DNA of 59,472 nucleotides from Hydrurus foetidus (taxonomy: Eukaryota). The translations under genes and the position numbers were made by a program. Where the stretch lies: positions 1 through 59,472 of the forward strand of contig UYFQ01000483.1 in the NCBI GenBank assembly GCA_900617105.1, read 5' to 3'. Below are positions 8,379-57,195 of the stretch, piece after piece. The notes under the pieces are model-generated. The model was not told the origin of the DNA. It did not search any database and saw only the letters and a list, made by a program, of their open reading frames with translations. Position 1 is the stretch's first letter, and the number at the start of each line of letters is the position of its first letter.

Positions 8379-8558
8379 CTCCCCGTAGTGAAGATGTATG
8401 TATGTATATGAGTGCATGTTTGCTAATTAGCTATCAATGATATAATACAAATAACAAATTGCAAGAAATTTATAGACTACTGTGTGAGTAGAATACTAAA
8501 AAATTACAAAATGCAGTGTAAAATATTAAGCTGCTCTGGAATTTGCTATTTTTTAACT

Positions 8559-9024: not shown

Positions 9025-9116
9025 CTGTGTAAGTAGAATACTAAAAAATTACAAAAAGCATTGTAAAATTTTTAAAAAAATGCATTAAATAATACGCAAA
9101 AGTTTACAAAAGATAT

Positions 9117-12100
9117 TTATAAATTATTTCTGAGTGTCCTGTCAACAATCTGGGATGTTAGTTTAGTGAAGATGGGTAGTGTTACCCTCTTGGTACCAAT
9201 GTCCGAGTTGTTGTCTTCAGAGGCTACCTTGATCACAGTGCATGTGCTGTCTTGCACCTTTTCCTTGGCATACGCTTCGGCGAGTGATAGGTGACGCAGG
9301 TTTCGGGTCATATGAGTGGTCTTTGAGTAGTACATGCAAGCCTGGTTGTCCTCTTCGATGATGGTTGGATCCTGTTTCCACCCTATCATCTCTAATATAC
9401 CGCGAGTTGGGATGACTTCCGACTTGAGTGCATGGTTCACAGCCTTGATCTCTGATTCCGCTGTGGACGTGGATACTTACCCTTGATCGGTGGAACACCA
9501 GCAAATGAGGCTTCCAGCGAGATATCCGAGGTAGCAGGTCTGGGAGTGGTGGTTATCTTGGTTACCACCTAGATCTGCATCGCACTGGAACTTCAGCTGT
9601 AGTACCTTGGTCATGGTGTCTATGTCGGTTGGTCCGTCATGGGTCCGGAATATGAGACGGTCCCTCTTCGCATACTTGACATATCTCAACAGGTGCTTGA
9701 GGAAAAGTATGTGTCTGGGACCAGGATTGTTACCATATCTCGAAAGTATGTTGAGTGCGTACACAATACCCACCATTGTGTGCACCATACCGTACATGAG
9801 TTGTCCGACGACACGCCTGTACGGGTACTTTTGACATGTGGCCCTATCGACGTCATTGGTGGGGCAGTCCATCTTGGACAGTGGTGGCTGCTGCGCGTCG
9901 GTGGGATATGGGAGGTGCTCGTCCTTTGCACCTGTGATGTTCGCCTCCTTGATGATAAGGTCGATCATACGGTGTTGATCCATGTAGTAGTTGTAGTGTT
10001 CGTCTACTTCTATACGGATACCGACGAACTCTTTGTCAGTTGCATCAGTGACTTGATATCCATGCTTGTTGAATGCTTGGATAACTGCATCCCATTCGTG
10101 GATGTGGTCGGGTGGACCAAACCATCTGAAGTCATCACTGTGTGCGATGATAATCATTGGTTTGCCCGAGTGCGTCCACTTGAAGAACAGTTTGAGGTCC
10201 CATGGTGTGTTCTTGTACCCACACTCCCTCAGGCACTTATCGAACTCAATGGAGAAGTTCTGTCCGGCTGGAGGGAATCCATACAGGTTTCCTACTGCTT
10301 GTATGCAGAAACCGGGTGGTACGTCGTACCCTTGAGGTGTGATGAACACTGGGAAGTCCTTGTTTGCTCTTGTTATGAGGTATGCACCTACAAGGTCACC
10401 GCCTCTCATTACGAGCTTATACGTTGCCGCTATGACCATGGCCAGCTTGATTGAGCAGGCTGCTACATTTCCACAATACACAGCTTCGGGGTCGAAGTCA
10501 ACGTTGGGAATCATCTTATCCCCTCTGCCGACCAGTCGAGTCTTCTTTGTCCCATCGTTCTTGACACTGAACAGCCACATCATCGGAACTAAGTGCTGTC
10601 CAGTAAAAGGGACGATGTTGAAGCAAGAGTTGACTTCAAACTTAGTCAGCTCAGTGTCGATGGCTTTTGCCCATGGTGGGTCCTTCATCGCTTTCCAGAA
10701 CGATTTGGGAACGCCGGCATCTGGGAGTGTCTTTATCTGATCATAGTGAGACGTCTCAACTACAGTCATCAGTTGCTCCGGATGTGTGGCCTGGATTGCG
10801 TACCAATATACGGCATCCTCTGTTTCCCATGACACTATTGGTGTGTTTGCACCAATCGAGTCGACGGTGTTTGCAGGGTGTATTGGTGCACTATCAGGTA
10901 TGCGTGGTGGTGAGGCCCTCTTGGGTGCACCGCTATGCGCCACTGGGTGGGGACCAGCTGGAGTTGTGACTGCATTCGTATCACTTCGTCGTCGCATGCT
11001 GTGGTTGGGGTCGACCTGGTTTGGTTGTATCGCCTCACTTGGTGCATGCATTGTGACTTGTGCATTTGCAGGCGTCTGATTGTGTGCCGCTTTTGGTGCT
11101 GGGACAGTCGTTTGAGCTGCCTCATGTATATGGGGTGGCTCTAATGCTGTTGTGGCTTCCATTTGTTGCACTATCTCTTCAGGCAAGTCGAAAATGACGT
11201 CTTTGCTGATCCTCACTGCGCCATATTTTCCCTTGTCTAATATCTCGATGACTTTGTAGGTAGGCTCAAGTGTGGTCGTCATGTCATATCCAATGAACCT
11301 GGCTTGGTATGCTCGGGGGTGACCGACTTTACCGCCTGCGTCCTTGGTTGGTATGTGGACCCAGCACTTGGACCAGAAAGCGTGGAGATGTTTGACGACA
11401 GCATGCTTTTAGTTAGCATGTTGTATGGGGAAGTACCTATCACACCATTGAAATTAAACGACATAGTGGCACACACATAGCTCATGACAATGTCCCAGAC
11501 CTTGGTTAGAACCGGTGGTGTGGGGGCTAGCATAATCGTGTTGCAGTTGGCTGCAATGACCCCCACTGTGCACTCCGCTACTCCATTGGCATGCTTGTCA
11601 CGAGGTGGTGTGGGCTCAGTGCGGTATCCAAAGCCTCCGAGGCACTTGGTGAACTCACTGGATCTATATGACTTTTCTGCATCGACCCTAACGAACCGAT
11701 CGATTGGGTCTGATGTAGCAGGTGCGTTCCTCCATTCTGGGTGAGACTCGAAGAGCAGGCTGACTTGGTCGCATAGCTCTTGGGCTCCCCGGTCACGGGT
11801 GAACACCGGATACACACGCCGTGTGGTGAGATCCGTGAAGAGGTCGCAGTATTTGAACCGGCCTGCGCCTCTTTCTGCGTGGGTGTATGCATCCAGAGCA
11901 AACTGGCTCCCCGGTATGGGTGCTGGTGCTCTATGGACCCTTAGGTGGTCCGTGGATGCTTGTCGCATTGTGCCCTGGACGCATGCTTGACACACGGGAC
12001 GGTGTGCCTTCGCATCGTTGCGGGTGTATGCTGCTCCAGTGGAGTGTGTCCGGTGCCATTCCATCCCTTCTTTACCAGGATGTGCTAGGACACGGTGGAC

Positions 12101-12160
12101 GTGGTCGTATAGTGAGGTGTCTTTAACGCTTGTGACCAACAAGCGCAACTCGTCACGAAG
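9117..12160 (-). pseudogene. pol: copia A integrase-RT-RNase H (frameshift ~11400, in-frame TAA 9477)
   Basis: HRVLAH..CQAC zinc finger, LDAY/VDAE/GVAE DDE, GNLYG, AHSDDF, CDADLGG, STAESE, EEDNQA, SDIGTK. Confidence 0.95.
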
Positions 12161-15100
12161 TCAGATTGACTTCTGGATGTAGAGTCCATCCTCTACTTCT
12201 CCCCGCAACTTCACAGGTCTTGCTGATCTGTGCCAGGTGAGGTTGTTACTCTTTGAGGCCGTAGAATCTGCAGTCGCGTGACGTGAAGATACCGCACATG
12301 TTCTCGGCACATGCCTGCGACACTGACAGTAGGGTCGTGTCCTTCATTCCTTCGATGACGATGGTCGGAAGCATGTATGGTGGCAGGTCACCCATCTCTG
12401 ATGGTGTGATAGTCTCCCCGAAAGCTGCATTCACCGTGCATGATGCAGGCCGTAGGTTCTTCAACTTGTTTCTGAGACCAGTTCCTGACGTGGAAGCTCC
12501 ACTGTCGATGATAACTTTATTTTCTTTTGAGGCCATACCCAGGACTCGATGTGCCGGCCCTACAGCGTGCAGAAGGTTCAGTTTGGCCTTGGGGCCTTTG
12601 CGAAGTTTCTGTAGTACCCGCCGTGGTGGCGTTGGGGCCGTGAGGTCGACTACAAATGGTTTGCCTGAACGTGGTTGATGTTGAAGAGCTGGTGTGGGGG
12701 GTCCTGGTGATGCCTCTAAGGCGCTGGGAACCGGCAATGGTGCCGCTGATGCGCTGTTGTCTCGAATTGGTGCCGCTGATGCGCTGCGAGCACTTGAGTG
12801 TGCCGCTGATCCGCTGATGACAGGTGGAATTGCTGGAGATGCTCGAGAGTTCTTATATGGCGCCGCTGATCCGCTGCGAGAGCCCGGTGATGCCGCTGAT
12901 GCGCTGTGCACAGTGGTTGGTGCCGCTGATGCGCTGTGTATACCGTGGGATGCAGAGGATCCGCTTTGGAGGCGCTGAGGAGTCGATGTAGCAGGGGTGC
13001 TCTTTCGTGATGCCGCTAATCCGCTGCCAACACTGGCTGATGACTGCGAGGTCGTGATGACGTTTCTTGATGAGCTGGTCATGCTGCTTGATGTTGGTTT
13101 GGCTGGGTCAGCTGCTTTCTCCTTGCCCTGAGTACGCTTGGCAACATAACCCCATCGCGGTGCACCATTTCCATACATGCCTATGGCAACGCGCTGTGGG
13201 GTTGACTGTGGAGTCGCTGGCGTGCGTGGTTCAGGTGATTTGTTTAGTGTGTACCGACGAGGTGGTGTAGGTGCAGGTTGTTGGGCCGGGGACAGTGGAG
13301 GTTGTATAGGGAACGTATCTGCATCATATTTCTGACGTGCTTCTACCGCTTTGACCTCTGACTTCCTCGGCTTCTTTCTCTGAGGCGTGAATACCTCCGG
13401 CGTGTCTGGAAAGTTGTACAGGTTCCTTAGGTCACGCTCTTGTTTGGGTTTGTCAAGTGGGGTGGTGTCTTCGCGCTGCGTATCCTTGTTTCGGAGGGCT
13501 GCGTTGGGACTGATGGTTGCGTCACTTGTATCCTCCCAATAGTTAGGCTGATCAAATGTGTCTACAGCTTCTTCATACTCCATGTCGTCTTCGGTATCGA
13601 TGCCAGAGAGGTCGCCATAGCATATCTCTTGATTGCCTTCCGAGGTGCTCATGACTGAGAACGTACGTACTTCCTGCGGGGGAGGTGCTTCGCGTTCTAT
13701 GACTGGTGGGCGGACTGTATCCACAATAGCATGAAATATCCGTGTGAGCATATGTAGCTCAACATACTCGGGTTCTTCGCTGAGCCTCTTAATCTCGTGG
13801 CGCATGATGACTCGTCCAGCCATGATTGTCTTGCGGTTGATAATGTCTACGTTTAGATGCTCTGCTGCATATGACATAAAGTCATACACTAGACCTAGCA
13901 TTAGAACGTTTCGTGTATCCGATGACACTCTCATGATGTTTATCCTATTTGCGATAACATAGAACTCGTCTATTTCATTTGCTCGTGACATGTAGTGGCC
14001 CGGTTCTCCCCGTGGGTGATAGTCCGACCATGTGGGTCTGAACAAATTAAACTCCCTATAGGTCAATTCTTGAGCGGTGGGGAAATCCATATGGGCGTTG
14101 AAGTACTCGCTGTTTTCATACAGCAGTTCCATAACGCGAGGGTCCGCATCTTTCACTTGGAAGTTTTCCTTACACATGTTGTGTAGTGGGTTGCAACTTG
14201 ATTGCCAACGGAATCCGGTGAATATGGTGGCTTCGACCTCACTGGTGGATCTGGCAAGGTCCGACTTGGTATACTTGTGGACGTATACGAGGAGATCTTT
14301 GATGGTGGGTACAAAGTCGTTGACATCTCTGAAAGTCTTGATTCGTTGATCGATGGACTTGAGCATGGCTTCCTGACTTTGATCACCCTTGATGTCTCCT
14401 CGGATATGACGACGCGTCTGGGGCTTGTACGTTTTGGTGGTACGTACGGCGTGATGGCGTTTGTCTTGAATACGTTTAAGTGCTCTGTCTTGTTTTGAGA
14501 CTTTGCAATGTCAAAGTATGTTGGATCCTGCCAGCCGTCTTTGCTTCCCTGGCTTGTAAGCGACTTGAGGACGACGAGCTGCTTGATGGAGTATCCTTCA
14601 GGATTCTTGTCCGTAGGTTTTCCACGTGGAGACCCGATCTTGGATCGGTGCTCGAATGATACCTTCTTGTGTTGCGGTGGTTGATACTTTGTCTTGGACT
14701 TGTCGTAGGTCTTCTCCTGTGGCTTGCGCTCAGATGGTTTACCTCCTGGAGCCTTGGATGTCTTGTGTGAGTACTTACACCGCTCACCGAACGTACAGGA
14801 GCCTTTGAGGAAATTGCGACATACATTTTCCTCAGTGATTGCATTCATCTTGAATGCTTTGATGGTTGGAGGGTCGGCTCGAATGAGCTGATCGACTAGC
14901 TCGCGATATCCTTTACTGTTTCCCCGAGAGGTATACAGGATCGCTTCCATACCCTCCTGCTTGTTCCCTTTGAGCTTCCTGGTCAGCAGGTATAGCTTCT
15001 CTGACTCCGTCATACACGTGAGATTAACGTTGTTCACGCGCGTGACAGCTTCCTCGAACGCCGCGATGTTTTCTTTGATCGACTTGCTTGAAGGTAGCTT

Positions 15101-16237
15101 GAGATCGTCGAGTAGCTCCCTTGATAGTCCGCTCTCATTACTCCTCTCGCCTTGAGCAAAGCCTTTGATGGCTTTGTACCACTCGATCCCGTTCTTGACG
15201 TCGATGTGTTGCGTGATGAGGTAATGTAGGTCCTTGTTTGTGACAAGATTCATCAGAGCGAATAGTCTTTCACAATCATGGTTGAATCTAAAATAATCAT
15301 CTTTCTTTGTGATGATTATTTTGTTGCCGTCGAACTTGGCAGATTCATGAGTATAACCGTTCGGATTATATTCATTTGATGGAACGGGGATCCTCTTTTC
15401 CTCGGCGAGAGTAAAGAGTTCGCACTCGTTCAGGAGAAGCTCGAGCTCTTTGAGCTTCTTCCTATTCGTAGCCCCGTCATTTGACAAGTTGATCTTGACT
15501 GCCATCGATGATTGATGCGTCGTAGTGATCGTATACTCTTTGACGGCGACCCTCCTACTTTCGATAAGGCTATTGTCGTGAGACTTCCTTTGATCGATTT
15601 CGATTACTGATTGGAGGTCGCTGACATCATCTCCTACGTCTAGGATGATTTGACTCCCCGTGTTTTGTTGCGCCTTTTCGACCGGCGTCTTACTGATCAC
15701 ACTTTCTGATGAGATCGTGTATTCGGTCATAACTGACCGAATGATTTCTCTGATATCTTCATTCGAATACATCCTAGAAGATTGCCCAGTGGCCAGAGAT
15801 ATGGCAGGCTCCGGAGAATGGTTGATGATTAGATCCGCTGAATCGCTCCTCTTCCCATTGTCCATAATCGCTCCAGGAATTATCGGCAGATCCTCCTGAA
15901 TAGGATCCGGCGGAGCTGGCGCTTTGAGAATATCCTCAACTAGTATGCCTAACTCAGTTTGTTGGACGATGAGCGCCAGTAGAATAATATCCTGCTCAAT
16001 ATTAACGAGGAAAGCCGGTTTCGATGGTGCTGAAGCTGACGAGATAAATCTCGTTTGGCCTCTTGACCGAGTAGCCATTCGAGCAGCGGCGGGTTGTTTT
16101 GCCGCTGGTCTTGGCACACTAGAACTTCTGTTCCGAGTGGCCGGCATTGCTTTGCTTGTCTGATGACTCAATTTTAGTTGATAAAAATGATCAGTTTTTC
16201 GCCAAAAATCTCTCATACTTGATTTGTTGTTTCTCAA
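12161..16237 (-). pseudogene. gag: copia A gag - CCCH finger - unknown domain - aspartic protease, ending at TGA 12161-12163
   Basis: CRNFLKGSCTFGERCKYSH; IIDSGAS; frameshifts ~14380 and ~12215, TAA at 12246. Confidence 0.88.
12738..13030 (-). repeat. Coding minisatellite (S-A/G-S-A-A-P units) in copia A linker
   Basis: Repeated TGCCGCTGAT(G/C)CGCTG on plus strand at 30-39 bp spacing. Confidence 0.85.
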
Positions 16238-16253
16238 GAATCAGTCGCTACCA

Positions 16254-16712
16254 TGTGGATCTGGCTAGAGGATATCACCTGATGACTTATAGTCCAACTG
16301 GTGTGGAGGCTACTGCAGTAGAACTCCAAGACTCGGCTAGAACGTTGTGTCGGCGAAATTGTAAGCTATATCGATTAAGATCTGCTTAGGTTTACAAGAT
16401 ACAGAAGATCTGCAGTTGGCAATCTGCATATGCAACTAATATGTGATTGGCTACCTGGCAAACGAGGTGGCGAGCAAGGTAGAGGTAAAATCATGTGTGG
16501 CGTTGCAAGAAAGATCATAGCAGTTTTGGCACTGAAAGGATGCTTTCGAATATGGGATGTATCGCCACCGGCCATATCTTGTATGTACAGTGTACGTTCT
16601 ATGGTGTACGTACGGTTACACATATATGTATACAGTACTACCTAACGTGTATCTATACTACTATATCTGCTACTATACAACAGACGTAACTACGTTGGTG
16701 GTTAGTCTGACA
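16254..16712 (-). repeat. 5' LTR copia A, PBS at ~16243-16253
   Basis: Direct repeat of 7920-8378; followed on minus strand by TGGTAGCGACT (initiator-tRNA-Met-like, cf. Ty1 TGGTAGCG). Confidence 0.97.
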
Positions 16713-16717
16713 TATTC

Positions 16718-24569: not shown

Positions 24570-24657
24570 GTAAAACCATAAATTGTACTTTCTTTATCTC
24601 TAATGCCACTACTGCGTATTTATTTAAATTCTTTCCGTCTTCTTTATTTTATTTCAG

Positions 24658-34540: not shown

Positions 34541-35461
34541 TGTCAGACCACTTGATTCTATCAAGATATGTCTGTAGTAATATAGTTGCAAATATAGTTT
34601 CAAATATATACATGTACGTTATGCGACACGTATGTACGTACGTAAGTACACATGCAGATATGATAACATGCACACGTACACACGTACTTACACATGTTAG
34701 TGCATACTCATTTATGCATACGTACACACATGTACTTACACATGTACGTACATAGTCAATATGTACGTACGTACGTACGTACGCACGCATGTAGCATAGC
34801 GTACACTTGTATGGTCACGCACACACGTACATACGTACGTGCACATGTTAGTACAAATTATTATATGCATACGTACACACACGTACTTACACATGTATGT
34901 ACATATATAATATGTACGTATGTACGATCGCCAATAGCGTAGTACATAGATGTATAGGCGTACATACGTAAGTACCACTGTACTTACGCATGTACGTTCT
35001 TATACATACACATGCATACGTACTCCTATAATATCGCCATATAGCAGTTAGTACTCACGCATGTACGTTCATATACATATACACGCATACGTACCCCTGT
35101 ACTATCGCCATGTATCAGTTAGTACGAACCCTCTGACCTCACGCAAATGAACGTTCGCCTTTCATGATTCTTCAGTATCGCCAAAACACTTCGTTACTAT
35201 AAGCATTCATGCAACGTTCCTCAAGCACATGCTATGAACAACACATCTCGCTGTGAACTTTGTCTCAAGGTAGTTTCACTGTCATGAACTGTTCTGATAG
35301 CTCTTTTGCGTGGCTATCTGTAAACTCTAATCAGAATTTAATACGTTGTACTTCACAGCTTCGTCTACTCGATAGCTCACTGAATTGAGACAGTAGCCTG
35401 CAGCTGCTTCTCCACCTTCGCTGCGAACGCTAGAAGGTGACATCTTGTATTTAGTCTTACA
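34541..35461 (+). repeat. 5' LTR copia B with alternating purine-pyrimidine U3
   Basis: TGTCAG...CTTACA; homologous to 380-1267. Confidence 0.95.
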
Positions 35462-35548
35462 TGGTAGCGATTGTTTATAGTGATTAAACGATTGCCGTGG
35501 ATTCCAGGATTCTGAATTTCCTTCCTCAACTTTCAGAACCCTGCAATC

Positions 35549-38500
35549 ATGAGTGATAATGGATCTGAAGACGAGTTCGAGCTGTCCAACACAGACTCTC
35601 CGCCGGCTCTTGCCGACCTCCTTCAACATCCGTTCAGAACTCTGATCGAAGCAGCTCAACCCATCTTCACTGGTCGAGTTACAAGATCTAGGACAGGAGC
35701 AATTCCTCCTTTAGAAAATCCAAATAGTGATTTTCTAGACGAGGTGGAATTAGCCCTTCAAAATCAGGAGGTTGTTCCGACACCACCTTTAGCACCTCGG
35801 GCGCGGAATCTCGGAGCCACAGCGACAACTTTATTTTCGGACAATTTGGAGGCTCAGGATGCAGAGACAAGATTTTCCTTCGCCGATGTGGCAAGGCTCA
35901 TCGACATTATGTCTTCTAAGATCCAACAGCCTCCACCGTTGGTCTCCCAACCGAAATCAACAGTTGGATCTGCTTCTATTCCAACTGCTTCAACGCCCAA
36001 GGACTCTTCTACTCTATCGGTGCCCATATCGGAATACCTGGATACCACCTCTGCGCAATCGAAATTCTTCTTTTCGATGCCCAAGTTTTCCAACTCTGGG
36101 AAGGACAACCGCGACAACATGGAAACGTTCATGGTCGCTCTAGGTGAATGTAAACTTCTTACATTAGCCAAAGGCGATCGTGAGTTACCAGTCATTACTG
36201 CTCGGAACCCTGGAGGGTATTCACCTAGGTCACTGGTATTAGCAGAAGAAGGATTGTATGATGTCATCCCAGCCGATGACATCTACAAAAGATTACACGA
36301 TTTGGATCGCTTATTGGTTATTCTCAATATGGTTACTGGGAAAGATCTACATTATTTGATCAAGCGTGTGATTGCCGACAACGATGCGGTCTTATGGTTC
36401 AAGACTATCTACGATCACATCAACGGCACAAAGAACAGCGACATCAGGAAGGCAACGGATCAGCTCCACTCCCTGAAGCTCAAGTCCACACAAACCATTC
36501 AGGAGAATGTGGCAACCATCGAAGAGGCCTTCAGAGTCCTCAAAGTCGCAAGTGGCGTGCCCGTCACTGATGATCAAAAGCTTTATCATCTACAAGAAAA
36601 GCTGGAGCATGATGCAAGATTCAGCGTCTTATCAATCATGGCCTCATCAAAGACGTCAAAGGCATCCTACGACGACACCATCAAATACCTTGTGCTTCTT
36701 GATCCTGCCCCAGCGGTAGCTCACAAGATGGCTTCCCTTACTCCAACCTTGGAGCTGTGCAGACGTCACATCGCTGGCCTATGTACCAACGGTTCCTCAT
36801 GCAAGTATTCACATGCAGCAGCGCCGCCAAACAAGGGAGCACCATCTGACAAGAAGCCCAACAAGAACCCACCTCCTCTCAAGAAAGATCAGAAGACTCC
36901 ACCGAAGTTTCCTTTCAAGAAACCAATCATCGTGTCAGATTCCCATCGGTCACTGGTTGGATATCCCAAAGGAGTTGCAACGGCAAAGAACCCAGCTGGA
37001 TATTCGCTGAACCAACTTACAACCATCAGGACTTTACAATCTGCTGATGTTGACGGCTGGGCAACAATGGCGATGGATCTAGCAACCATATCGATCGGTT
37101 CAATGTTCTTCGCTTTAAAGAACAATCAACGACATCCATTGCAGAGTTCCCAGAGTTCTACCACCTTGAGCCCTTTCCAAGACTTCGTGAGATCAGACGT
37201 CACCTGTTCACAATGCTCAACTCGGTCGAGAAGTATAACAGATTCGCCGGTTCATCTCCCAGCGACTACGATGGATCTCCTACTGATCCTCTCTCCGGAA
37301 TTGTTGTCAGCTTCCAAGACCTGACAGCAGCTGAACCAAGGATGGTACACATCTTGGTGGCATTCACATGGCTTTCAGAGAGCCCAACCATCTCGAGATC
37401 CGTGAAAATCCGAGAAGATGTTCGTACAGCAGACAAACGGCTTATGCGAATGCTCTACAAAATTGGAAACAGGTTCTTGAACGCCGACGTGTTGATTCCA
37501 GACAGGGAGGGTTCCGAAAATTTCAGTTATATGAACTTCAACCCTCTCTCCGACAAATTCTATCATTCCGACGACTATGGGTTTTACCAATCAAACATGA
37601 GAAACGTGGAGAAGTACTTTGTTGCTATCAGATACATCATGGAGCATCCTGACATTCCATGGCGACTTCTACGTATTCTCTCTTTGGCTATTATCTACGA
37701 CTTCATGTCATTCTGCGCGCAACTACTTCGTGATGCAGTGCAAATGCAAGCTGACGAATCCCAGACAAGAGCAAATGTGTTATTCACATTGAATACATAT
37801 CGATCCAACGCACAGTTCTTGGATCAGATAGTCTTCCACGATGCTTTCTCTGCAATCATCAACAACATCAAACCAATGCCTCCAGCACCACAGTCTTATG
37901 CATTGCAGACAAGCCCAATCACGACATCATATTCACGTATGAGTGCCATCAACAGAGAGGACCTGCTTAGTGAGACGACTGACCACACTGAAGAAAATGA
38001 TGATGATAATGATGATGATGATGACGATGAATACAGTGACGATGAATCAGAAGGTGATGACATAGACATGACTCCACCGGGGTCATCATCTGATCATCAC
38101 AGGAGATGCCAAGAAGACCTGACCCGATACAATCACCCATACGTGATGGGTCATAAACGCAGTCTGTGGGCATCAATCCAGACTGATACCAAGCGTCCAG
38201 CACGCAGGAAGATCATCAAAACATCAGATGACAATGAGTTCAAGGAGACACCGGGAACATCCAGCTCAATGCATGCTCCACCAATGCTTCAAGACCCTCC
38301 TCTTGTTACTGATGATATTGTTCCAGCACTTAAGACTGCTGGTGTACCTCGTATGATTGTATCAGTCCCATATACGATCAAGGAGGAAGAGCAGCAAACA
38401 TTGCAGCTGGAGCATCCTCCCATGTCACTCGACTCTCAGCAATCTACACAAGATATTTTGCATCCTCCAATGGCAGATCTGGCAACCCCTGAGCCATATC

Positions 38501-39018
38501 GAATGCGCACTCCGCCAGCCAAATCACCATCAAGAGATTCAGTGTCTGCCACACGTCGTGCAAAAGCAAGAGCACTGGCTGAGAAAAAGAGTCTCAACTT
38601 ACTTACAGTTACAGACAAAGACAGCAAATTCATGTCATTCAAGAAGACAAGTCACAAGACAGTCATTGACAGTGGTGCATCTACATCTGGTACTGGATTG
38701 CGCAGCAGTCTCCGTGACCTTAGACCTACATCATGCAGTGTCTCAGCAGCTTTCGGGGAGACTGCCCAGCCTACTGAGATGGGACTACTCCCACCATTCA
38801 TGCTCAAGACTATTGTCATCGATCAAATGAATGATACTACACTGCTCTCAGTGTCTCAAGCGTGTGCAAAGGGATTTGTGGGCATCTTCACCTCTAAGGA
38901 CTGCAAGTTCTTCAATGCGATAGATGTCATCCCACACTTTCAGACAATTTCAAAGACAGCTCACCCAGTTATGAGTGGCAAGGTAGAGGAAGGCCTCTAC
39001 TTGCTGGACTCCAACTGA
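35549..39018 (+). pseudogene. gag: copia B gag - CCCH - unknown domain - protease (frameshift ~37065), ending at TGA 39016-39018
   Basis: CRRHIAGLCTNGSSCKYSH, NPAGYS, VIDSGAS, TTLLSVSQAC, GKVEEGLY. Confidence 0.88.
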
Positions 39019-39202
39019 GTGCAACCGGCTCAACTCTTGGTCACGAGTGTAAAGGAGCTTTCGATTTACGACCACGTGCATCGCGTACTAGGACACCCTG
39101 GCGAAGAGGGTATGGCCTGGCACCCACAGTACACCATTGGAGCACACTACTCCAACTTGGATGCATCTACACCAAGACCAATATGCGCAGCATGCGTACA
39201 GG
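39019..39202 (+). pseudogene. pol: copia B integrase N-terminal zinc finger (continues at 46969)
   Basis: YDHVHRVLGHPG...CAACVQ|GTMR restored after removing G2. Confidence 0.92.
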
Positions 39203-39528
39203 TGTTACATACGTTGCTTCATATAAATCACACGTACGTACATACACAATACACGTCACTCGTAGCCACTAGTTTTTCAGATCAGTTTTCGGTTTCTGTC
39301 TGTTCGACAACTTCAACTCGAGACATACTCCATCGTAGCTAAACTCACGCTCTTTTCACTCCTAAAGTAACCAAAGTCACTAAAACCCAAGAACCAGTTC
39401 GACTCCTTTCAGTCAACCGACCATCTCGTCTGTTCCAGTTGTTCAGCGAGAGATCTCAGCTTAGCCCAATTGCGAAGCTGATCAACACGTTTCATCTTCA
39501 GTCAAGTCTCTGAAGCCGTGATACAGCA
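39203..39528 (+). repeat. 5' LTR of G2
   Basis: TGTTAC...CAGCA, direct repeat of 46637-46962. Confidence 0.96.
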
Positions 39529-39722
39529 TAAATATATATTTCTCGTTTACACGAAAAACGTCTAAATCTCAGATCCCTCAGTTGATTCAATCCTTGTACG
39601 CCAGCATCGCAGTGATCGCCCTGGCTCAGCGAGATTTTGAATCTCTGAGGTAATTTCAATACGAAACGAATTGTCCCGAAAAATCATTCAAGAAAAACAA
39701 TTCTACAGTTTCTACATCTAAA

Positions 39723-41408
39723 ATGTCTGAAGGAAAAGGAAGCTTCAATCCTAAGAAGGAGGAGCCAAAGAAAGATGAATCCAAGAAGAAAATCGAGGTC
39801 GTTAAAGAAGATCCCGCTACAGATTCCAATTTCGAGCTCAAGCAGATGTTCGCTCAGTTTCTCATCTTAAGCAAAGACAATCAATCGCGCAATACTATCG
39901 ACATTCAAGAGCTGAGAGATGCAATCTTGGAATTGAAGAAAGGAAATTACCTATCTCCAATACTAGAAGAACTTACCGACACTCCTACGCTCAATAGACC
40001 TCGTGGAGGCAGAAGATCTTCTATGTTTTTCGGAATGTCTCAACCACCATCTAGCACCCTAGGACCAACAACAGACACTAAGCCGAACATACAAGTGCTC
40101 CAAGGCGACATCGTCTACGATAAGGAACTCAAAGTTAGTTCACTAGAAGGCCTTCAATATCTGGCCCGGCAACTTCAGCTTCTATCTTCCAAATATCCTG
40201 GTCGCGAGATCAAGATGGCCCACATGGTCTCCTACAACCTGCGCCCACATGTTCTAGCATCGTGGAACTCATATAGATATCGAGAGTCTGTTATCAATGG
40301 CGCTGAGTCAAGTGAAATTATGGTTGAAGATTGGTTATCTCTAACTAACCCTGAAGTTCAAGAGATCCTGGTGGAAGCTGCCCGACCCCGCACAAAAGAA
40401 TTGTACTCCAAGGAAATCGTCATATTCCTTGGTAAAGGAATCCCTCAGACACCTCCAATAAACACCGACAATTTCTCGAGCTCGTTCTATGCCCCACTGA
40501 TGAAGTCACTCAACGACTTGCTCCATCTTTATGACCTGATGTCACCGGAAACTTCAAACCACAGTGCCAATAAATCCAAAATACCAGTACCTGGCTACGG
40601 TACCAGGGACAGTCCTGGCCAAATCGCCTTATGGCTTATATCCCTAGGCGCTCAAAAAGAAGCTGTACTTCAATGGCTAGGCAAGGATGAACTTATCAAG
40701 CACAAAACTATTGAAACAGCAGTCAAATTCATTCGATCTCGACTAATGGAAGGTCGGGCCCAAAGCGAAGCTCGTCAAGACTTCGACGCAAAACTCACCC
40801 CTATCCGTTATGAAGACCTTCGACACACCCAAGGCGAATCCCACACCCGCCTGCAGACATCCGCGGCAGGTCGTCCACCTTTCGTGACTCCTCGCAGACA
40901 TGAGCACCGTCCACATCTGTCATCTCTCGTAACGTCCGCTCAACCACCGTCATACGCAATCGACAACGAACACAATGATGATGACACTCCAGATGACGAA
41001 ATCGATACTGATGCCTCAAGCATTCATGATGATATACATCATGACGACGATACCCTACTCGCTATCAACTCAGACATTAATCGTTCCCGATCAGCTGTCA
41101 GCGACACCTATCGTGGATATTGCAGCGAACTATTCGTCTACGGCAAATGCTCACGCCAACATTCTGGTTGCACATTTGATCACTCAGCTGCCGGTCAAGA
41201 GCGCTGCATCCAATCATTCTCCCTCCTGACCAAACGAGAGTTACAGCAGCATGCGCAGCTAGAGCCCTGGTCAAAACAGAAACAAGAATCTACAAACGCA
41301 AATAAATCCGCAAACACATACGGTTCCAAGCATGTTGGCTCTCCACATAGCTCTGGATCTGTCCGGCCCTATGTACCGTCAACTTTGACTCGGCCATATC
41401 AGAAATGA
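39723..41408 (+). CDS. gag: G2 Gag-like protein, 561 aa, with CCCH-type finger
   Basis: First ORF after the LTR; CSELFVYGKCSRQHSGCTFDH. Confidence 0.8.
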   Translation: MSEGKGSFNPKKEEPKKDESKKKIEVVKEDPATDSNFELKQMFAQFLILSKDNQSRNTIDIQELRDAILELKKGNYLSPILEELTDTPTLNRPRGGRRSSMFFGMSQPPSSTLGPTTDTKPNIQVLQGDIVYDKELKVSSLEGLQYLARQLQLLSSKYPGREIKMAHMVSYNLRPHVLASWNSYRYRESVINGAESSEIMVEDWLSLTNPEVQEILVEAARPRTKELYSKEIVIFLGKGIPQTPPINTDNFSSSFYAPLMKSLNDLLHLYDLMSPETSNHSANKSKIPVPGYGTRDSPGQIALWLISLGAQKEAVLQWLGKDELIKHKTIETAVKFIRSRLMEGRAQSEARQDFDAKLTPIRYEDLRHTQGESHTRLQTSAAGRPPFVTPRRHEHRPHLSSLVTSAQPPSYAIDNEHNDDDTPDDEIDTDASSIHDDIHHDDDTLLAINSDINRSRSAVSDTYRGYCSELFVYGKCSRQHSGCTFDHSAAGQERCIQSFSLLTKRELQQHAQLEPWSKQKQESTNANKSANTYGSKHVGSPHSSGSVRPYVPSTLTRPYQK

Positions 41409-44400
41409 GATTTTGCGAGGCCTTCGTTAGCTCACATGCACATCGAAGATCACCTCGCCGACCCTCATGACTACCCACTACAAAGTGTCTTCGACCCTGA
41501 CAACATCTTAACAGAAGCCTTGCTCAGTCAGTTGGCAACCGCTACATCCACCTCGTCGCAACTGCTGTGCCAACCCTTCATTCGTTCCGGTACCGTTGTT
41601 ACTAATACCAACCCAATTCTCTTCAGTCGTGGTCTACTTGATACGGGCGCTCAAGGCAGTAACTTCATCTCCCGTCAATTGTATGAAAGATTACCATCGT
41701 CTATAACTGACCTCAGCCGCTCAATTGACCGTGTTGTCCGTCTCGGCGATGCTCGCTCTTTATCAATTCAGTTGGAAGTTCCTCTCACACTTGGAATTCT
41801 CGATTCCACTAAGAATCTCCATCAACACACACTCTGGTATAGTGTCCTCGACGTTCTCAGCCATGACATCATCATTGGCTTGGTCGATCTAATTGGACCT
41901 TTTACGAGCTTTTTGCTGATGCTGTCACAACGTCTCGTCACTTATCTATCACGTCTGGACTTGGGACGCACTTAGTAGACCTCACTGCTGCCGTTCAAAC
42001 ACTTCACAGTGACCGAAATCCTCACGATATAGTTCGAGCAACCCATTCGCTACAACGGCAAACTGCTACCTATCTCGACCGAAAATCTCGAATGTGCAAT
42101 AGTACAAACACTCACATTCAGCTTCTTGCTCTCCAAGACGGCTCCATTACTGATGTTCTCAATCATCCTCGCCTTGGCTACGTCTATGCTGATGATCGTG
42201 TTGAAACTAGGTATGATGCTTTGACCGCACTGCTCTGTTCACCCAGTCCTGGTGACATCATTCAACCTTGGTCAAAGCCTATTGATTCCTTGGCTCCTGA
42301 GGAACTTGAGACTCCTGACCCAACGAGCTTCCCCGATGATATCCTCAATTATCTCACGACATCACTAGATGAAGCTCGCGCCATCTACATTGCCGACCTT
42401 GAGACACATGTTACTCCCGCTATGCGCACCGCTTGCCCAGCCATCATAGAACTATTACAATCCGACCTAGCATACGACGTATTTGTCCCAAGAACATGGA
42501 AAGGTATTGACATGCCTCCGGTACACCTTAGTGTCAAACCCGGCATGCCTGATTATCTCAAGGCTAGACCTCGCCCAATTCGAGAGGCTTTATTCCAAGA
42601 TGCTAAAACAGAATTTGACCGCATGCAATCATACTTCTATGTAAAATCTACATCTCCAATTGCTTGCCCGCTCGTCATCGCACCCAAAGCTACTGCTCCC
42701 TACATACGATTCTGTGGAGACTATCGTGAAATTAATCCCTTCATCGAAATACCTCAAGAACCCATTCCACATGTCCAACAGTCCTTAGCAAAGGCTGCCG
42801 GTTGGAAAATATTTGTTGACTTAGACATGACCAACTCATTCCATCAAATTCCCATCGACGAATTCAGTTCCAATCTCCTCTCTGTGTCTACCCCCTGGGG
42901 ACTCTTCCGACCTAAGTTTCTCCCAGAAGGTGTTGGACCTGCGTCTGGAATTCTTCAGTCCATCGTCCGTCGCATTTTTGCTGATTTCGAAGCCTGGATT
43001 ATAGTAATCTTTGACAATTTTCTTGTGCTGGCCTCTGATTACCAAGATGCTATTACAAAGCTCAAACTAGTACTTCATCGCTGCCAGATCAATGGCCTTA
43101 TCCTTAAAATGAAGAAGTCATGGATCGGCACCGACGTCGTTACCTTCTTTGGTTATGAAGTTCATCCCGGATCATGGCAACTCTCCGACACTCGCAAAGC
43201 GGCTATATCCTCCATGATCTTTCCTACCACGCAAAAACAAATGCAGAGTTTCTTAGGAGCTGCAAATTTTTTCCATACACATATCCCCAACTTTGCTTCC
43301 TGGGCGTCGGCGCTATACGAATGCACTGTCTCTGGCTTCAACTGGGATCCCTCAACATGGAAGACAGACTACAAGAAACTCTTTGACCTCTTCAAGACAG
43401 CAATCACACAGTCTGTCACCTTGCACTTTCCCGACTACACTCTGCCTTGGGTCGTCCGCTCTGACTCCTCCGACCATGCAGTAGGCGCAGTTCTTTTTCA
43501 GGAATTCACCGACTCCAACGGAGCTATCATACATCAGCCGATAGCATTTGCATCCCACAAATACTCAGGCGCTGCCATCAATTGGGACACCTTCAAACAA
43601 GAAGCTTACGCATTGTACTTTTCAATCATTCAGTTTGGCTACTACCTACGCGGTAAACCATTCCTCCTTGAAACAGATCACCGTAACCTCGTCTGGATTG
43701 AAAGCAGTCAGGTCCCCATTGTCGTTCGCTGGCGTGTCCTCCTCCAGAGCTATATTTTCGAAGTTCGACACATTCCAGGAAAAGACAATACCGTAGCTGA
43801 CTGGCTCTCACGCATGTACCCCATACATACTGCATCACCCTCTCTCTCTGCGATCTCAACTCCTACCACCATCACTGACATGTTTAACGCTGTACATGGT
43901 GGTCGCTCCCTCCATCATGGTGCCAAGCGGACGTACTTAGCTCTCTGTCGACGTTTCCCTGGCCATGGCATTCCTCTCAGAGTAGTCCAGGATCTTGTCA
44001 CTGAGTGTCCTCTATGCCAAAAGGATCGACTTCCAATACAAACCATCGAACACAACGAAGTCCGTGAAACATTATTTCACCACCCACGATCTATCGGTAT
44101 AGATCATGTCACTATCACTCCACCGGATGAAGACGGATACATTGGTCTACTACTTGTTGTTGAACTTGATACGAAGTTTCCTCAAGCCTACCCCATCCGA
44201 GATTACACAGCGTATACTGCTGCCACTGTTCTCTTCAAACACTATTGCACATTTGGTACCTACGACTCCCTCTACTCAGACCCTGGCAGTGCCTTCACTG
44301 CTACTGTCCTCGAACATCTCAACCATTGGATCGGTATCCCTCATCATGTTTCCCTCGTTGGCCGACACGAATCCAACGGCACTGAACACGTTAATGGACT

Positions 44401-45169
44401 CTTCCTGGGTCACCTTCGCAGACTTGTCCATGATGAACGATTCACCACCAGATGGGCTTCTGATACAGTCCTACCTCTCATCAACCATGCAATGATGACA
44501 CTGCCCAACACTGAAATTGGCGGTCTCTCGCCTGCTGAACTCAAATTTGGCACTCAAGATTATGCCCGATTCCAGCTGCCACCTCCACTATCACCGGGTC
44601 ACACCTACAGTGATCTCGTAATTGCCCTCGACCGTAACCTTGCCATCGTCCGATCAATCACCTCTGAGTACCAAAACTCACTCCGTCAGCGCCGCCAGTG
44701 TGCTATGCCATCCGATTCCCACAATGTCTTCCAACCCGGTGACCACATCCTCTGGAACCCGTTAGAAACACCCCAATCGTTCCGCTCCAGCAAACTGTCT
44801 CCAAAACTCCTTGGTCCATATGAAGTAATTCAACAAATCAAGAACGATATTAGTTGCCGACATGTTGTGACAAACATCGTTTCCAAACTTCATGCAAGTC
44901 GAGTTACTCCTTACTTCGGCTCCCCTGCAACTGCGTACACTACAGCTCTCCTTGACCGTGATGAATACATCATCGATTTGATTGTCACTCACCGAGGCAA
45001 TCCAAAGAAAGTGTCCACACTCGAATTCCTTGTTCGCTGGCAAAATTACTCCGCAATCCATGACACCTGGGAACCATGGATGGAAATGAAAAACACATCA
45101 GCAGTTCACCTATACCTAAAAACAAATAACATGAAACACATAATACCAAAACAATTCACAAAAGACTAA
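41409..45169 (+). CDS. pol: G2 pol (PR-RT-RH-IN-chromodomain), one 1-nt frameshift in a T-run at ~41900
   Basis: LLDTGA, DLDMTNSFHQ, IFDN, SDSSD, ADWLSR, HHG..CPLC, LLGPY, VRWQNYSAIHDTWEP. Confidence 0.93.
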
Positions 45170-45341
45170 CCTGCAACTTTCCGACTTTACACACTGCTTA
45201 ACTCATGTTTAACCCCTGATTTATGTTGTGACTTGTTTAGTCCGGTATCACGTGGGGCCTCAGGTATATACCACACCCTTCATTTTACCATTCTGACAAA
45301 TCACAAGGGTGTTACCCCGACAATCAATAATTTTTTTAATC

Positions 45342-46220
45342 TTATAATTCATACAATGCAAACTCATAACATAAACACAAATCCTCCATGCGATCAACCA
45401 TGTTATGAGCAGTATATTTCTTCATGCCATATGTACACCCATTGTCCACAATCATCGTCGCATCCGGATTCTCTTCCACTCTAATGCCTATCGCGTGATC
45501 AATTGTTTTCAGTCCAAGTGCATATTTTCCCCATTCCTCCACGACTTGTGCTTCCGTCAATGTGTTCAAATGCTGCATCCATTTCTTGTGCTTATCAGTT
45601 GCCCATCTCGTCTTCCCCAAAATCACAAACTTCTTTCCTGCCTTATTCAAAACAGTTTTCTTCAAACTATTAACATCCCAACCCAACCCAGACTTCATAT
45701 TCATCCCCGTCCTCTTCCACGTGAACTTGACATCCTTTCCTCTTGCCTGATTATTCTCAACAATTCTCCACAAAACCTTCAGTACCTCATGACTATTCAC
45801 CCCTTTCAACAGAGTTCTCCCCTGTCCTCCTATAACTGATATGATTAAGTCCCTTGGATCTATACTCCCACCACATGTTAAAAGTTCTTTTCCTACAGCA
45901 TCTAATACGTTAAACACCGCGAACATCATGCACTGATTCTCTGTCTTTGGCCACAGCACAATATTCTCTTTCTCAATAACATCCCTAATTGCTTGTGCTC
46001 TTGCATTCGCTTCTGCCTTCGCTTTTGCCTTCACTTCTGCTTTCGCTTTCGCTATTGCTATTGCGACCCTCTTCTCCTCCGCTTTCGCTATCGCTCCTGG
46101 TGTTGCATCTGCTATCGCTTTCGCCAATGCTTTCGCCACTAACTTCAATGCTGCTTTCGCTGCTTTTGCCTCTGGAGTTGCAACAGCCCTTCCCATTGTC
46201 GCTCCGTAATCTGCTATCAA
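45342..46220 (-). CDS. Antisense accessory ORF in G2: papain-fold cysteine protease with A/K-rich N-terminus
   Basis: Intact 292 aa; ENQCMMFAVFNVL, DHAIGI, IVDNG give Cys-His-Asp order; homolog at 2318-3541. Confidence 0.78.
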   Translation of the reverse strand: MIADYGATMGRAVATPEAKAAKAALKLVAKALAKAIADATPGAIAKAEEKRVAIAIAKAKAEVKAKAKAEANARAQAIRDVIEKENIVLWPKTENQCMMFAVFNVLDAVGKELLTCGGSIDPRDLIISVIGGQGRTLLKGVNSHEVLKVLWRIVENNQARGKDVKFTWKRTGMNMKSGLGWDVNSLKKTVLNKAGKKFVILGKTRWATDKHKKWMQHLNTLTEAQVVEEWGKYALGLKTIDHAIGIRVEENPDATMIVDNGCTYGMKKYTAHNMVDRMEDLCLCYEFALYEL

Positions 46221-46636
46221 TATCTCACTATATCAAATGCCAATGTCAACTCTATACTCAATCTGTTCTATATTCACTCTTGTATGTATGAAATTGTGAA
46301 TCTCTGATTGATTTGATCAATGTATATATCGCTCAAACTGTCAGTTCGTTTTTGTTTTTGTATATTTTCGATCAGTACACGTCACCAAGAAAAATAAAAA
46401 AATGACGTCGTTGACGGTTTCAACTGACGCCGCGTTCCAGTAGTCTGGTGGGAAGTCTTTCGCTCAAGACGCTTGAGGCCGCGTGTCCGATTCCACTTAA
46501 ATGCCTAATAATTTCCTAATCACTTCATTCAGCTTTTATAGCGATACCTTGTACTTGACGAACTCACTGAGATGTAGTTAATGCATTGTATTTATTTATT
46601 GTCAACTATAATATATTTAAACCGAAAGGGGGGTGG

Positions 46637-46962
46637 TGTTACATACGTTGCTTCATATAAATCACACGTACGTACATACACAATACACGTCACTCGTAGC
46701 CACTAGTTTTTCAGATCAGTTTTCGGTTTCTGTCTGTTCGACAACTTCAACTCGAGACATACTCCATCGTAGCTAAACTCACGCTCTTTTCACTCCTAAA
46801 GTAACCAAAGTCACTAAAACCCAAGAACCAGTTCGACTCCTTTCAGTCAACCGACCATCTCGTCTGTTCCAGTTGTTCAGCGAGAGATCTCAGCTTAGCC
46901 CAATTGCGAAGCTGATCAACACGTTTCATCTTCAGTCAAGTCTCTGAAGCCGTGATACAGCA
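46637..46962 (+). repeat. 3' LTR of G2
   Basis: Direct repeat of 39203-39528, preceded by PPT. Confidence 0.96.
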
Positions 46963-46968
46963 TACAGG

Positions 46969-49797
46969 GCACGATGCGACGGACCTCTACGGACCATCTT
47001 CGTATACACCGTTTGCCATCTCCTTGCTACGGCAGTCAATTCTCACTTGACGCGTATACACATACACATCGGTCACAGGCCGGTTATAAGTACTGCGATA
47101 TCATCACGGACTTATCTACAAGACGCAGTTATCCATGCTTCACGAAAGACCGGGGAGCTGCAGAACTTGTCAAAAGCTTCTCCACCCTCTTCCAATCACA
47201 TCCTGAGTGGAAGCCCTTGCTTCCAGGCGTAGACCGATTCATCAGAGCCGATGCAGAGAAATCTTATCGGTCAGCTGAATAACTTCAATGCCTTCACAAC
47301 TTCGGATATCGACTTGAGCCAACACCACCTCGCGACAAACATGCAAATGGAATCGCAGAACGTGCAGTAGGCGTCTTATCGATGAAGTGCAACATCACCA
47401 TGCAACCTTCAGGGATGTCAGTACCACAGAAGTTCTGGGATCTTGCCTTTGAGTATACATGCATCACCCATGCATTCAATTACCATTCAGCAATCAAGAC
47501 ATCACCGTATCATCTCATCACTGGAAAGCATGTAATCCTCAAGAACCTCAAGGCCTTTTGGAGCTTATGTTGGGTTCACATCGCGCTTGAAGATAGGAAA
47601 GGAAAAATCGGTTTTCCTCGTGCATACAAAGCCAGATTCGTTGGTTACGATTTATCGAGAACGCTCGAGCCTTGTTTTAAGGTCATCGAAATACTACCAA
47701 CCGGAATCTTCGGCAAAATTAGGACAAGTAAGGACGTCATTTTCGACAAAGACAATAATTATAATTACACGGACGAGTACCCATCCGATCTTGACTTTTC
47801 TAATTTACACCAGAATATCAATAACGATATCTCTGCAGTCCTACCAGCTAACAAGGTAGTTGAAAAAGATTCTGAACAACAACTAGCAACTCCAGCTATT
47901 CCAATACACCCTGTACATGTAATACCTTGCACTATTCAGAATCGAACTCCTGAAAATCCTATTCCAGCGAAAATACATCCAAATGTCATTAACAATAACA
48001 AAATTGTTAATAAATCTGGATCGACTAATATCAAATCAACAAAACAGAATATACCGTTTGATCCAACACCAATTAGAGATACAAATAACAAATCCGACAT
48101 CGATGATAATGACATTGGTATTAATACACCAATTCAAAACATTGAAAATGACGATGCTGTTTACTGGTACTCTACTCATGTTAGAAATCACGAACATTTT
48201 CTCTCATTGATTGAAGCAAGTCATCACGAAAAACTCTTCATCAATTTCGATCAACTCAATGTGCCAAAATCATTCTGGAAAGCTATGGCTATACCTGAAT
48301 GGAAAAACGCAATAGATACTGAATTAAAGAAATTCGAGAAGAACTCATGTTTACATGTAGTACCATATATTGACCAACACCTGGTACCAATGATGTGGCT
48401 TTTTGGTATAAAAACCGACGGTACGAAAAATGCCCGTTTAGTGGGACGGGGAGATATGATGATACCACTCGTGGACTTCGACCCCGACGCCGTATACTGC
48501 GGAAATGTATCATCGTGTTCCATCAAAGTGGCACTAAGCATTGCAGCAGCATATGGACTAGTAATGAAAGGAGGTGACCTCATTGGTGCTTACCTCATTA
48601 CAAGAGCAAATGTTAACTTCCCGGTGCACATAAAGACACCGCAGGGATACACTTGCCCACCCGGTTTCTGCTTTCAGGCTGTCGGCAATCTTTATGGATT
48701 CCCACCTGCAGGGCAAAACTTTTCCATAGAGTTCGATATTTGTATCTTCGAGTGTGGTTACAAGAACACACCCTGGGACCTCAAGTTCTTCTTTAAATGG
48801 ACCACAGATGGTAGACCCATGCTTATCATCGCTCACAGTGATGACTTCAGATGGTTTGGTCCTTCGGACAAACTTGATGAATGGGATCTGATTATCGCCA
48901 CCTTCAATGCACACAAGTATGAAGTCACTGATGCAACTGACAAGGAGTTCGTTGGTATTCGTATTCAGCGTGATGAAGATGGCACATATTATATGGATCA
49001 ACATCGCATGATTGATTCAATAATAAAAGAGGCTAATATATCTGGTGCGAAGGACATGCACTTACCATACCCGACTGGGGACCAAGAACCTGCATTGTCA
49101 AAACTAGACAACGCTTCTACCCCTGAGGAACGTATGCAGTGTATGAAGTACCCGTACAGGAGGGTCGTGGGTCAACTAATGTACGGTATGGTACATACCA
49201 TGGTCGGCATTCTGTATGCACTCAATGTACTATCCCGCTATGGTAACAACCCAGGTCCCAGACATATTAAATTCCTCAAACACTTATTGCAGTACTGCAA
49301 GTACGCACGAAGTGATCGACTAGTGTTCCATGGACACGATGGACCCAGAGACATCGAGACTATGACAACGCTACTTCAACTCCGGTTTCAATGCGATGCA
49401 GATTTGGGTGGTAATCCCGACAATAGCCACTCCCAGACTGCATACCTTGGATACCTCGGCCGTAACCTTATCTGCTGGTGTTCCACCGACCAAGGCAGCA
49501 TATCAACATCAACGGCAGAGTCGGAAATCAAGGCTGTCAACCATACACTCAAAGCAGAGGTCATAGCCAACAGAGGCATCCTAAACATGATGGGATGGGT
49601 CCAAGGTCCAACCTCTACTGAAGAAGACAACCAAGCCTGTATATACCATTCTAAGGCAGCACACATGACACGCAAGCTAAGGCACCTCGACCTCACCGAA
49701 AACTGGGTCAAAGAGAAGGTTGCTGATGGTACTTGCGTAGTTGTTAAAGTTAAATCGTGCGATAATAATTCAGATATTGGTACAAACAGAGTTTCTC
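46969..49797 (+). pseudogene. pol: copia B integrase core-RT-RNase H (in-frame TAA at 47280; cut by copia C)
   Basis: FSLDAY, RADAEKSY, NGIAER, AHSDDF, CDADLGG, STAESE. Confidence 0.95.
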
Positions 49798-50313
49798 TGT
49801 CGGTATATAACAGCGATAAGTGCTAGTTATAGCTGTATATTACCATTTGTATAATCAACAATTAGCATGATAGGATATCACAAGTAAACACACTTTGTAG
49901 ATTGTTATTGGTGTGCAATGTGCACCAAGTCGCTTCCTCAATGCCAATTCGTATCACGTATATTGCCATTGTTACACCATAATAACCACAGCTGTATAGT
50001 ATTTATCCGGTACTTGGTACCAAAAGTCTAGCTTTTAGTACAAACGTCATATTTACAGTTGAGTAGCTACTATCTCGCCTATACAACAACGTAGATGCAA
50101 ATCTACGAGAGCCAGTCAAATTGCATGCGCATGACGATTGAGATCTTATTATTGTACGGCAGGTAGAAATGATGTGCAACATGATTTTATGCTTTGTGGC
50201 CTCCGTGCCAGTTTCTAATTCTTAAATCGAATTTACTAACCAAACCTCTCAACCTTCGTTTGGCCATTTGCAATATGTCCTCCCGACCTCGTGCCATCCC
50301 ATGGCAACTCACA
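49798..50313 (+). repeat. 5' LTR of copia C (single copy in window)
   Basis: TG...CA bounded by host junction and PBS. Confidence 0.85.
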
Positions 50314-56926: not shown

Positions 56927-57195
56927 CTTCAATTTGAAATGTAACTATGCAGTGACTGAACGTGCTTTCCCATATGATGATTCATTTTTGTAAAAATAAC
57001 ATGGTTTTTTTGAAGGAAAAGTTTTAAATTTTACCAGCGTTATTCCTGTAAATAGAAGGATTTATTCAAGCATTGCAACATCAACGGACTTCTAAAAAAC
57101 AATGATATATCAAAACCAAAAAAAAATATGAAAATAGGTTAGTGATATTTAGTATTTATTTCCTCTTCCTCTTGAGCTTATTATCCTTTTCATAC

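Follow-up and report, generated by a model that had tools for sequence, protein, structure and literature searches.

Elements and Domains of the Window

The window, that is, the whole stretch of 59,472 nucleotides of Hydrurus foetidus DNA that was analysed (contig UYFQ01000483.1), is rich in transposons and contains elements of three copia families, designated A, B and C. Its main features are as follows.

7920..16712, minus strand: element of family A, with LTRs at 16254-16712 and 7920-8378 that are 99.6% identical, and a 5-bp target duplication
12161..12163, minus strand: in-frame TGA of family A, in the context ATC-TGA-CTT-CG
34541..35461, plus strand: 5' LTR of family B, then the PBS TGGTAGCGA
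35516..37324, plus strand: gag of family B, with a CCCH finger
37093..37884, plus strand: domain X of family B, between Gag and protease (model pLDDT 90, pTM 0.88)
38650..39015, plus strand: aspartic protease-like domain of family B (D-S-G ... G-L-Y), ending at the stop codon
39016..39018, plus strand: in-frame TGA of family B at the protease/integrase boundary, seen in sequence and frame
39019..39200, plus strand: linker (xLLVTS) and integrase HHCC finger of family B
39201..46964 (ends approximate), plus strand: chromodomain-bearing gypsy element inside the family B integrase, with identical 330-nt repeats, RVT_1 and Chromo
46965..49826, plus strand: integrase core, RT and RNase H of family B, 98% identical to protein P0062
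50327..56522, plus strand: element of family C, with fused protease and integrase

By their hallmarks, namely TG..CA LTRs, PBS, PPT and target duplication, the elements split by a stop codon between protease and integrase are Ty1/copia LTR retrotransposons; the PBS is presumably a match to initiator tRNA-Met. A copia-type RT (RVT_2) was detected with E values of 3e-15 in family B and 8e-17 in family A. Their domain order is PR-IN-RT-RH, also in family D, described below, and the profiles rve, SH3_retrovirus and RVT_2 follow one another in P0031.

Domain X, predicted to be a well-folded domain of no recognised family, is present in split and fused elements alike, with homologues at approximately 13560-14225 (minus strand) in family A and at 52668-53081 in family C. 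No Pfam or PDB match was found for it, the best Z in a fold search was 5.9, and no Foldseek match at E of 0.001 or less was obtained in a viral library; matches in the PDB sequence search were limited to the CCCH finger and low-complexity stretches. The next domain is called aspartic protease-like from its motifs and position. Residues D7, S8, G115 and Y117 are invariant across 25 sequences, while its model has a pTM of 0.45 and no significant fold match. With the Pol_BBD profile, 4 of 17 clade-related proteins gave no more than sub-threshold matches, while the canonical copia protein P0200 scored above the threshold.

Other features of the window include an ORF for a DDE transposase of the Harbinger type, accompanied by inverted repeats (20644-22468, minus strand), a fragment of this ORF that interrupts the family C RT (56411-57195), and a 30-nt tandem repeat (12703-12965) in the low-complexity spacer between domain X and protease of family A. 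The nucleocapsid finger of Gag scores as CCCH type, not as the usual CCHC knuckle, in families A, B and C and in the gypsy element (39654-41408), mostly below the Pfam cut-off. Long ORFs lie within 23608-25975 (plus strand) and 45342-46232 (minus strand); two of three were scanned and gave no Pfam match, one of these two being antisense within the gypsy element.

The In-Frame Stop Codon between Protease and Integrase

In families A and B, the TGA is located five codons past the protease G-L-Y, and the integrase resumes in the same frame; the coordinates, frame and shared codon position reported in an earlier note on this DNA were confirmed. Family D, represented by contig L003, carries X-PR-TGA-IN-RT-RH as one frame of 1340 codons with one stop, TGA. 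Accordingly, all three families known at the DNA level (A, B and D) have a single in-frame stop at the junction, five codons 3' of the protease motif G-[LI]-Y. The first in-frame ATG past the stop is found at codon +32 in family B and +33 in family A, beyond the integrase His pair, as the note had stated. Its description of family C also holds: protease and integrase are fused without the stop, and 51 residues separate G-V-Y from YDHVH, versus 22-23 in the split clade.

The window copy of family A has a 5-nt gap relative to family B about 18 codons 5' of the stop, so its X-PR frame terminates earlier, at a TAA (12248-12246, minus strand); database relatives of family A have the C-terminal end IQKSI. 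The stop does not lie between gag and protease, Gag-X-PR being one frame in P0006, P0028 and P0029. The break between gag and X-PR in family B is private to the window copy, P0028 being continuous across it. Since intact relatives of 1174 and 1335 aa are continuous there, the gag/X frame breaks of the window copies are regarded as private damage, and a programmed gag/X frameshift was rejected.

Family D was found by a pattern scan blind to the stop, which gave three contigs in bacterial MAG records, two fused and one (L003) split. Searches of genomes related to those MAGs (301, 401, 401 and 301 genomes) revealed only two more loci, L008 and L009, both fused, as well as one weak match with an E value of 8e-4, and scans of metagenome-contig and viral-contig collections gave no match. 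The copia contigs within bacterial GTDB MAG records (L001-L003, L008 and L009) are likely eukaryotic contamination.

Distribution of the Stop Codon among Related Elements

The same end was found in most homologous proteins. A search with the family B protease among proteins of 359-1145 residues gave 26 proteins, 22 of which end exactly at G-L-Y+5. Three others end earlier within the protease, and P0009 reads on, with Arg in place of the stop. Among proteins of 1146-3270 residues, both matches (2/2) end there; these are Gag-X-PR proteins of 1174 and 1335 aa without internal frameshift. Pooling both searches, 24 of 28 protease homologues stop at this residue, more than chance would give; the sense codon that the note had named as a refuting outcome is not the rule in relatives, which also stop here. 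Among distant representatives clustered at 50%, 26 of 129 end at that residue, down to 30% identity. Ser occupies position -2 in all 47 distinct proteins ending at the stop (47/47, the set being those that pass an end-motif filter), and in only two rows of the fused type, P0081 and P0112.

Integrase homologues (489-1558 aa) give the reciprocal picture: 47 of 59 begin inside the N-terminus of integrase, and the remaining 12 reach further upstream. A quick tree of integrase, rooted at its midpoint, places 44 of these 47 proteins with A, B, D and P0009 (SH-aLRT 91, unstarred), and the other 12 fused rows fall outside this clade together with P0070, P0079 and P0083. A single origin of the stop is likely. 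The distance from G-L-Y to YDH is 22-23 codons in the split clade versus 22-51 in fused relatives, leaving out one mis-parsed row, P0170.

Three further cases were observed in these sets. P0079 and P0083, a pair starting in integrase outside the main split clade, may represent a second origin or broken copies. The fused protein P0081 has Ser at -2, the 22-codon spacing of family B, an LLVAT motif and, in place of the stop, Pro; it is possibly an ancestral or reverted state. In a distant family (P0160, P0164, P0174, P0181 and P0203), all called integrase proteins start with Met 20 residues before YEDVH, possibly reflecting a different route to a divided Pol.

Across 456 family B contigs from X1, all three letters of the TGA are free of variants at a level of 1% or more, although five nearby sites do vary, and likewise no such variant was present in contigs of X14 and X16; it should be noted that contigs drop rare variants. 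A divergent X16 contig retains the TGA. At positions 38938, 39125 and 39130, nearly all aligned contigs differ from the window, which represents private changes or assembly errors. Eight database copies have one in-frame sense residue at the stop site (W, W, W, R, R, L, Y and Q), with Tyr and Gln both from the family ending in ...MESN. As Arg and Trp fit TGA while Tyr and Gln fit TAG or TAA, UGA is perhaps not universal, and one family may use TAG or TAA instead. The invariance of TGA that the note had proposed to check is therefore seen in 3/3 DNA families and in the family B contigs, with these two residues hinting at an exception.

The stop could also be explained by decay, by a mutation hotspot or as a mark of non-autonomous elements, or the host could read TGA as sense. 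The window copies of families A and B are indeed otherwise broken. However, the common end of 47 distinct proteins with their uniform Ser, the preservation of long IN-RT-RH frames (about 1000 aa) and the 99.6% identity of the family A LTRs all speak against decay. In 13 long frames, Trp is always encoded by TGG and no other internal TGA occurs, so TGA does not generally serve as a sense codon here. This group of explanations is highly improbable, and decay or a hotspot is largely refuted. By sequence, the stop between protease and integrase is genuine and common to a clade, and its retention is probably programmed.

Candidate Signals in the RNA around the Junction

The junction was compared with a background of about 2.5 kb of aligned PR, IN and RT of families A, B and D. 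Synonymous conservation peaks in the 15-codon window from -5 to +9 (z 3.06), with none of 776 background windows as high; for windows of 9 and 25 codons, 2/784 and 5/736 background windows, respectively, are as high. The consensus fold is lowest in the 40-nt window starting at -30 (-10.7 kcal/mol; 0/712 background windows as low, and 5/666 at 60 nt). The junction is constrained at the nucleotide level in the three sequences compared. The following structures, chosen after inspection of these three sequences, and candidate start codons were noted.

38983..39000, plus strand: predicted upstream hairpin of family B over the V-E..L-Y codons, 15/18 cells paired
39006..39022, plus strand: predicted hairpin of family B enclosing the stop, 16/18 cells paired in A, B and D, with one G-C/C-G change
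39033..39074, plus strand: candidate H-type pseudoknot of family B 3' of the stop, with stem 1 at 39033-36/39045-48 and stem 2 at 39038-42/39070-74
39037..39039, plus strand: TTG of family B at codon +7 past the stop, common to A, B and D, a candidate non-AUG start
12102..12146, minus strand: candidate pseudoknot of family A, with a stem 1 of 7-8 bp
12142-12140, minus strand: TTG of family A at codon +7

Within the stop hairpin, the GA of TGA is predicted to pair with TC, which belongs to the invariant Ser codon at -2. Hairpins of 6 bp with at least 16/18 cells paired occur at 14 of 2203 positions scanned. The hairpin is weak in family D (-0.1 kcal/mol), and its pairs are broken by a divergent low-depth contig and by a 2.7% variant. 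The inner ACTC/GAGT stem proposed in the note for family B is predicted, in register with hairpins in A and D, but the TTGC that the note had drawn into the same hairpin pairs upstream instead. The covariation of stems that the note had suggested examining is not significant over the three rows, the observed level being reached in 175 of 500 shuffles.

The candidate pseudoknot, predicted from base pairing, begins 14-17 nt past the stop. Its topology is of the H type because the 5' arm of stem 2 sits in the loop of a small hairpin. Stem 2 (TGGTC/GACCA, 5 bp) has 15/15 cells in Watson-Crick pairing and 27 nt between its arms in A, B and D, without covariation among them; it is the sole fully Watson-Crick conserved 5-bp stem within 45 nt, and none was found at 2496 background positions (14/2496 when G-U pairs are admitted). 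Stem 1 of family B is shifted in register relative to A and D, and 9/12 cells are paired in the A/D register. Folding each sequence by itself 3' of the stop gave nothing significant (z no lower than -1.5), and a search for conserved long-range stems of 6 bp, covering about 180 nt around the stop, found none.

The codon after the stop, GTG, which the note had considered for non-AUG reinitiation, is present in family B but not in A and D, which have CTT; it was rejected as a start, and the TTG at +7 is the better candidate. Translation might terminate at the stop, with a separate IN-RT-RH produced from this near-cognate UUG by reinitiation, internal entry or a weak internal promoter and packaged in trans. 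In all three families, the TTG lies exactly 19-21 nt past the stop, despite family B being one codon shorter, whereas TTG at invariant Leu columns elsewhere accounts for 3/87 codons. In addition, gene calls begin at this Leu pair in 12 of 58 newly listed integrase matches and in 8 further representatives, implying that the codon there is of a start type, and Met is common at this site in fused relatives. However, base pairing in stems 1 and 2 also accounts for the TTG, and the codon has a pyrimidine at -3. The frame and residues from the stop to the TTG are preserved, which initiation would not need. UGGGA, a motif of reinitiation, does not occur in the 120 nt upstream in any of the three families, and a free Pol would require its own path into the particle. 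A weak junction promoter described for Tca2 (PMC2194720) offers a parallel to the internal-promoter variant. Overall, initiation at +7 is the foremost alternative to readthrough, possible but not the probable reading.

A related and equally tentative proposal is an RNA switch, in which the hairpin would hide the UGA and the pseudoknot would hold the UUG; termination would unfold it, leading to non-AUG initiation of free IN-RT-RH and its packaging in trans, and either domain X or the Gag CCCH finger would regulate the process.

Possible Mechanisms of Expression

Programmed readthrough of the stop, giving much Gag-X-PR and little full polyprotein, is considered the best explanation, with a probability of about 0.6. 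Ribosomes would read the stop at a low rate, producing mostly Gag-X-PR and few Gag-X-PR-IN-RT-RH molecules, with a near-cognate tRNA decoding UGA. The UGA-C context (families A and D), together with the pseudoknot-like fold 14-17 nt downstream, would act as the stimulator, and the protease would then cleave at the xLL/VTS motif, freeing integrase. The hairpin enclosing the stop must melt on arrival of the ribosome, so that a role as a switch or protein-binding site is more likely for it than one as the stimulator.

The preserved frame, the linker length fixed in the split clade and the lack of an ATG before the His pair fit readthrough, as do the eight database copies with one in-frame sense residue at the stop site and the nucleotide-level constraint at the junction. 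The motif past the stop resembles the motif before protease (ANLVVTS and SLLVTS in family D), an echo expected if the region past the stop is translated and cleaved. The UGA-C context is found in two of three families, while family B has UGA-G, a tighter context. The TGA-CT of A and D is the context conserved in Tj1/Tosmo (bioRxiv 2022.12.06.519325), and UGA-CUA/CGG with a 3' structure defines the type II readthrough class (PMC3159437). On the other hand, the spacer to the 3' structure is 14-17 nt here versus 7-12 nt in the examples described in PMC3159437, and the Tca2 junction by itself gave no readthrough in yeast reporters (PMC2194720). Moreover, the TTG at +7 fits initiation equally well, and the Tyr and Gln that one family has at the stop site point to TAG or TAA there.

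Inefficient splicing could remove the stop or join an upstream exon to integrase. Families A and D read CTGAC across the stop, which we take to resemble a branch point, with an AG about 30 nt downstream. Splicing has a precedent in Ogre (PMC6317226), and conserved splicing around the protease is described for plant copia elements (PMC5580714). Against this, no in-frame GT-AG pair of donor and acceptor is common to A, B and D, and the best donor of A and B would remove G-L-Y; in some proteins the codon before the stop specifies Lys or Met, which is incompatible with CTGAC, and P0049 has Asn at the position of the AG. One contig of X17, a run whose RNA origin is guessed, covers 38839-39200 ungapped. 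No joint skipping the stop, which the note had proposed to look for, was seen there; at this low depth, a minor isoform is possible. The RNA run X19 had no contigs over the junction, which is not proof of absence. Splicing is accordingly a doubtful alternative to readthrough.

Selenocysteine insertion at UGA, or its A-to-I editing to Trp within the hairpin, would agree with the presence of TGA inside a predicted hairpin in 3/3 families and with Trp in 3/8 in-frame copies. These Trp residues, however, may be DNA mutations or table-4 gene calls; the same X17 contig, of guessed RNA origin, is unchanged at the stop, and the hint of TAG/TAA in one family disagrees with both variants. For selenocysteine, no SECIS family was among the nine Rfam matches in 1-17000, where divergent elements could escape, a crude motif scan gave one weakly folding match, and at the homologous position none of the fused relatives compared carries Cys. 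Either form of UGA recoding is very unlikely. Of the mechanisms named in the note, the general proposal of a clade-wide stop with excess Gag-X-PR is supported, and readthrough appears the best of the three from sequence comparisons, while Sec-like recoding is disfavoured and reinitiation at GTG is not conserved.

Comparison with Known Systems

Retroelements must make far more Gag than Pol. Overproduction of protease together with Gag is known in alpharetroviruses (gag-pro/pol) and in Drosophila copia with its spliced RNA; these use a -1 frameshift or splicing and no stop codon. In the literature cited here, recoding points lie between gag and protease, whereas this diverse clade appears to have shifted the control point past protease and kept it at one codon. 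Sister elements lost or never had the stop, so that the emergence of such a site can be traced by natural comparison, and the junction is a new candidate for a readthrough signal, in a eukaryote not studied before. For annotation, this serves as a warning: such elements come out of gene calling in pieces, and a repeat pipeline would count them as dead.

Among the closest systems is Tca2 of Candida albicans, a Ty1/copia element with one in-frame UGA between gag and pol, a predicted 3' pseudoknot and an unsettled mechanism (PMC2194720). In Tca2, the stop ends gag and precedes protease (PMC2194720), while here it follows protease, and ORF1 is about 1000-1335 aa, with the extra domain X. The fission yeast elements Tj1, Tosmo1-3 and Tcry1 also have a CTN Leu codon directly after TGA, a feature maintained among related elements, but they are Ty3/gypsy elements with the stop at gag/pol and GAA before it (bioRxiv 2022.12.06.519325). 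MuLV gag-UAG-pol and type II viral readthrough likewise have an in-frame stop with a 3' structure, the latter a candidate in the present clade, which has UGA-C in A and D; they are experimentally proven and have a spacer of 7-12 nt, whereas the system described here is known from sequence, and in MuLV protease lies downstream of the stop (PMC3159437, PMC2194720).

Ogre and Bianca likewise have two ORFs, and in Ogre the break comes after GAG-PROT (PMC6317226). Their ORFs are about 274 and 172 bp apart, with an intron in Ogre (PMC6317226), in contrast to one codon between the ORFs here; a non-coding spacer of the Ogre type, of about 170-270 bp with splice sites, is not present at the junction of A, B or D. 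A literature search, with subscription papers outside its reach, found no single in-frame stop and no readthrough between protease and integrase in the texts available. The note had not recognised a control point after protease from other elements; this stands with respect to readthrough, while the position itself has a precedent in Ogre, which splits after GAG-PROT by an intron (PMC6317226). What is likely new is the transfer of a known type of control, stop-codon readthrough, here itself a prediction, to a position after protease.
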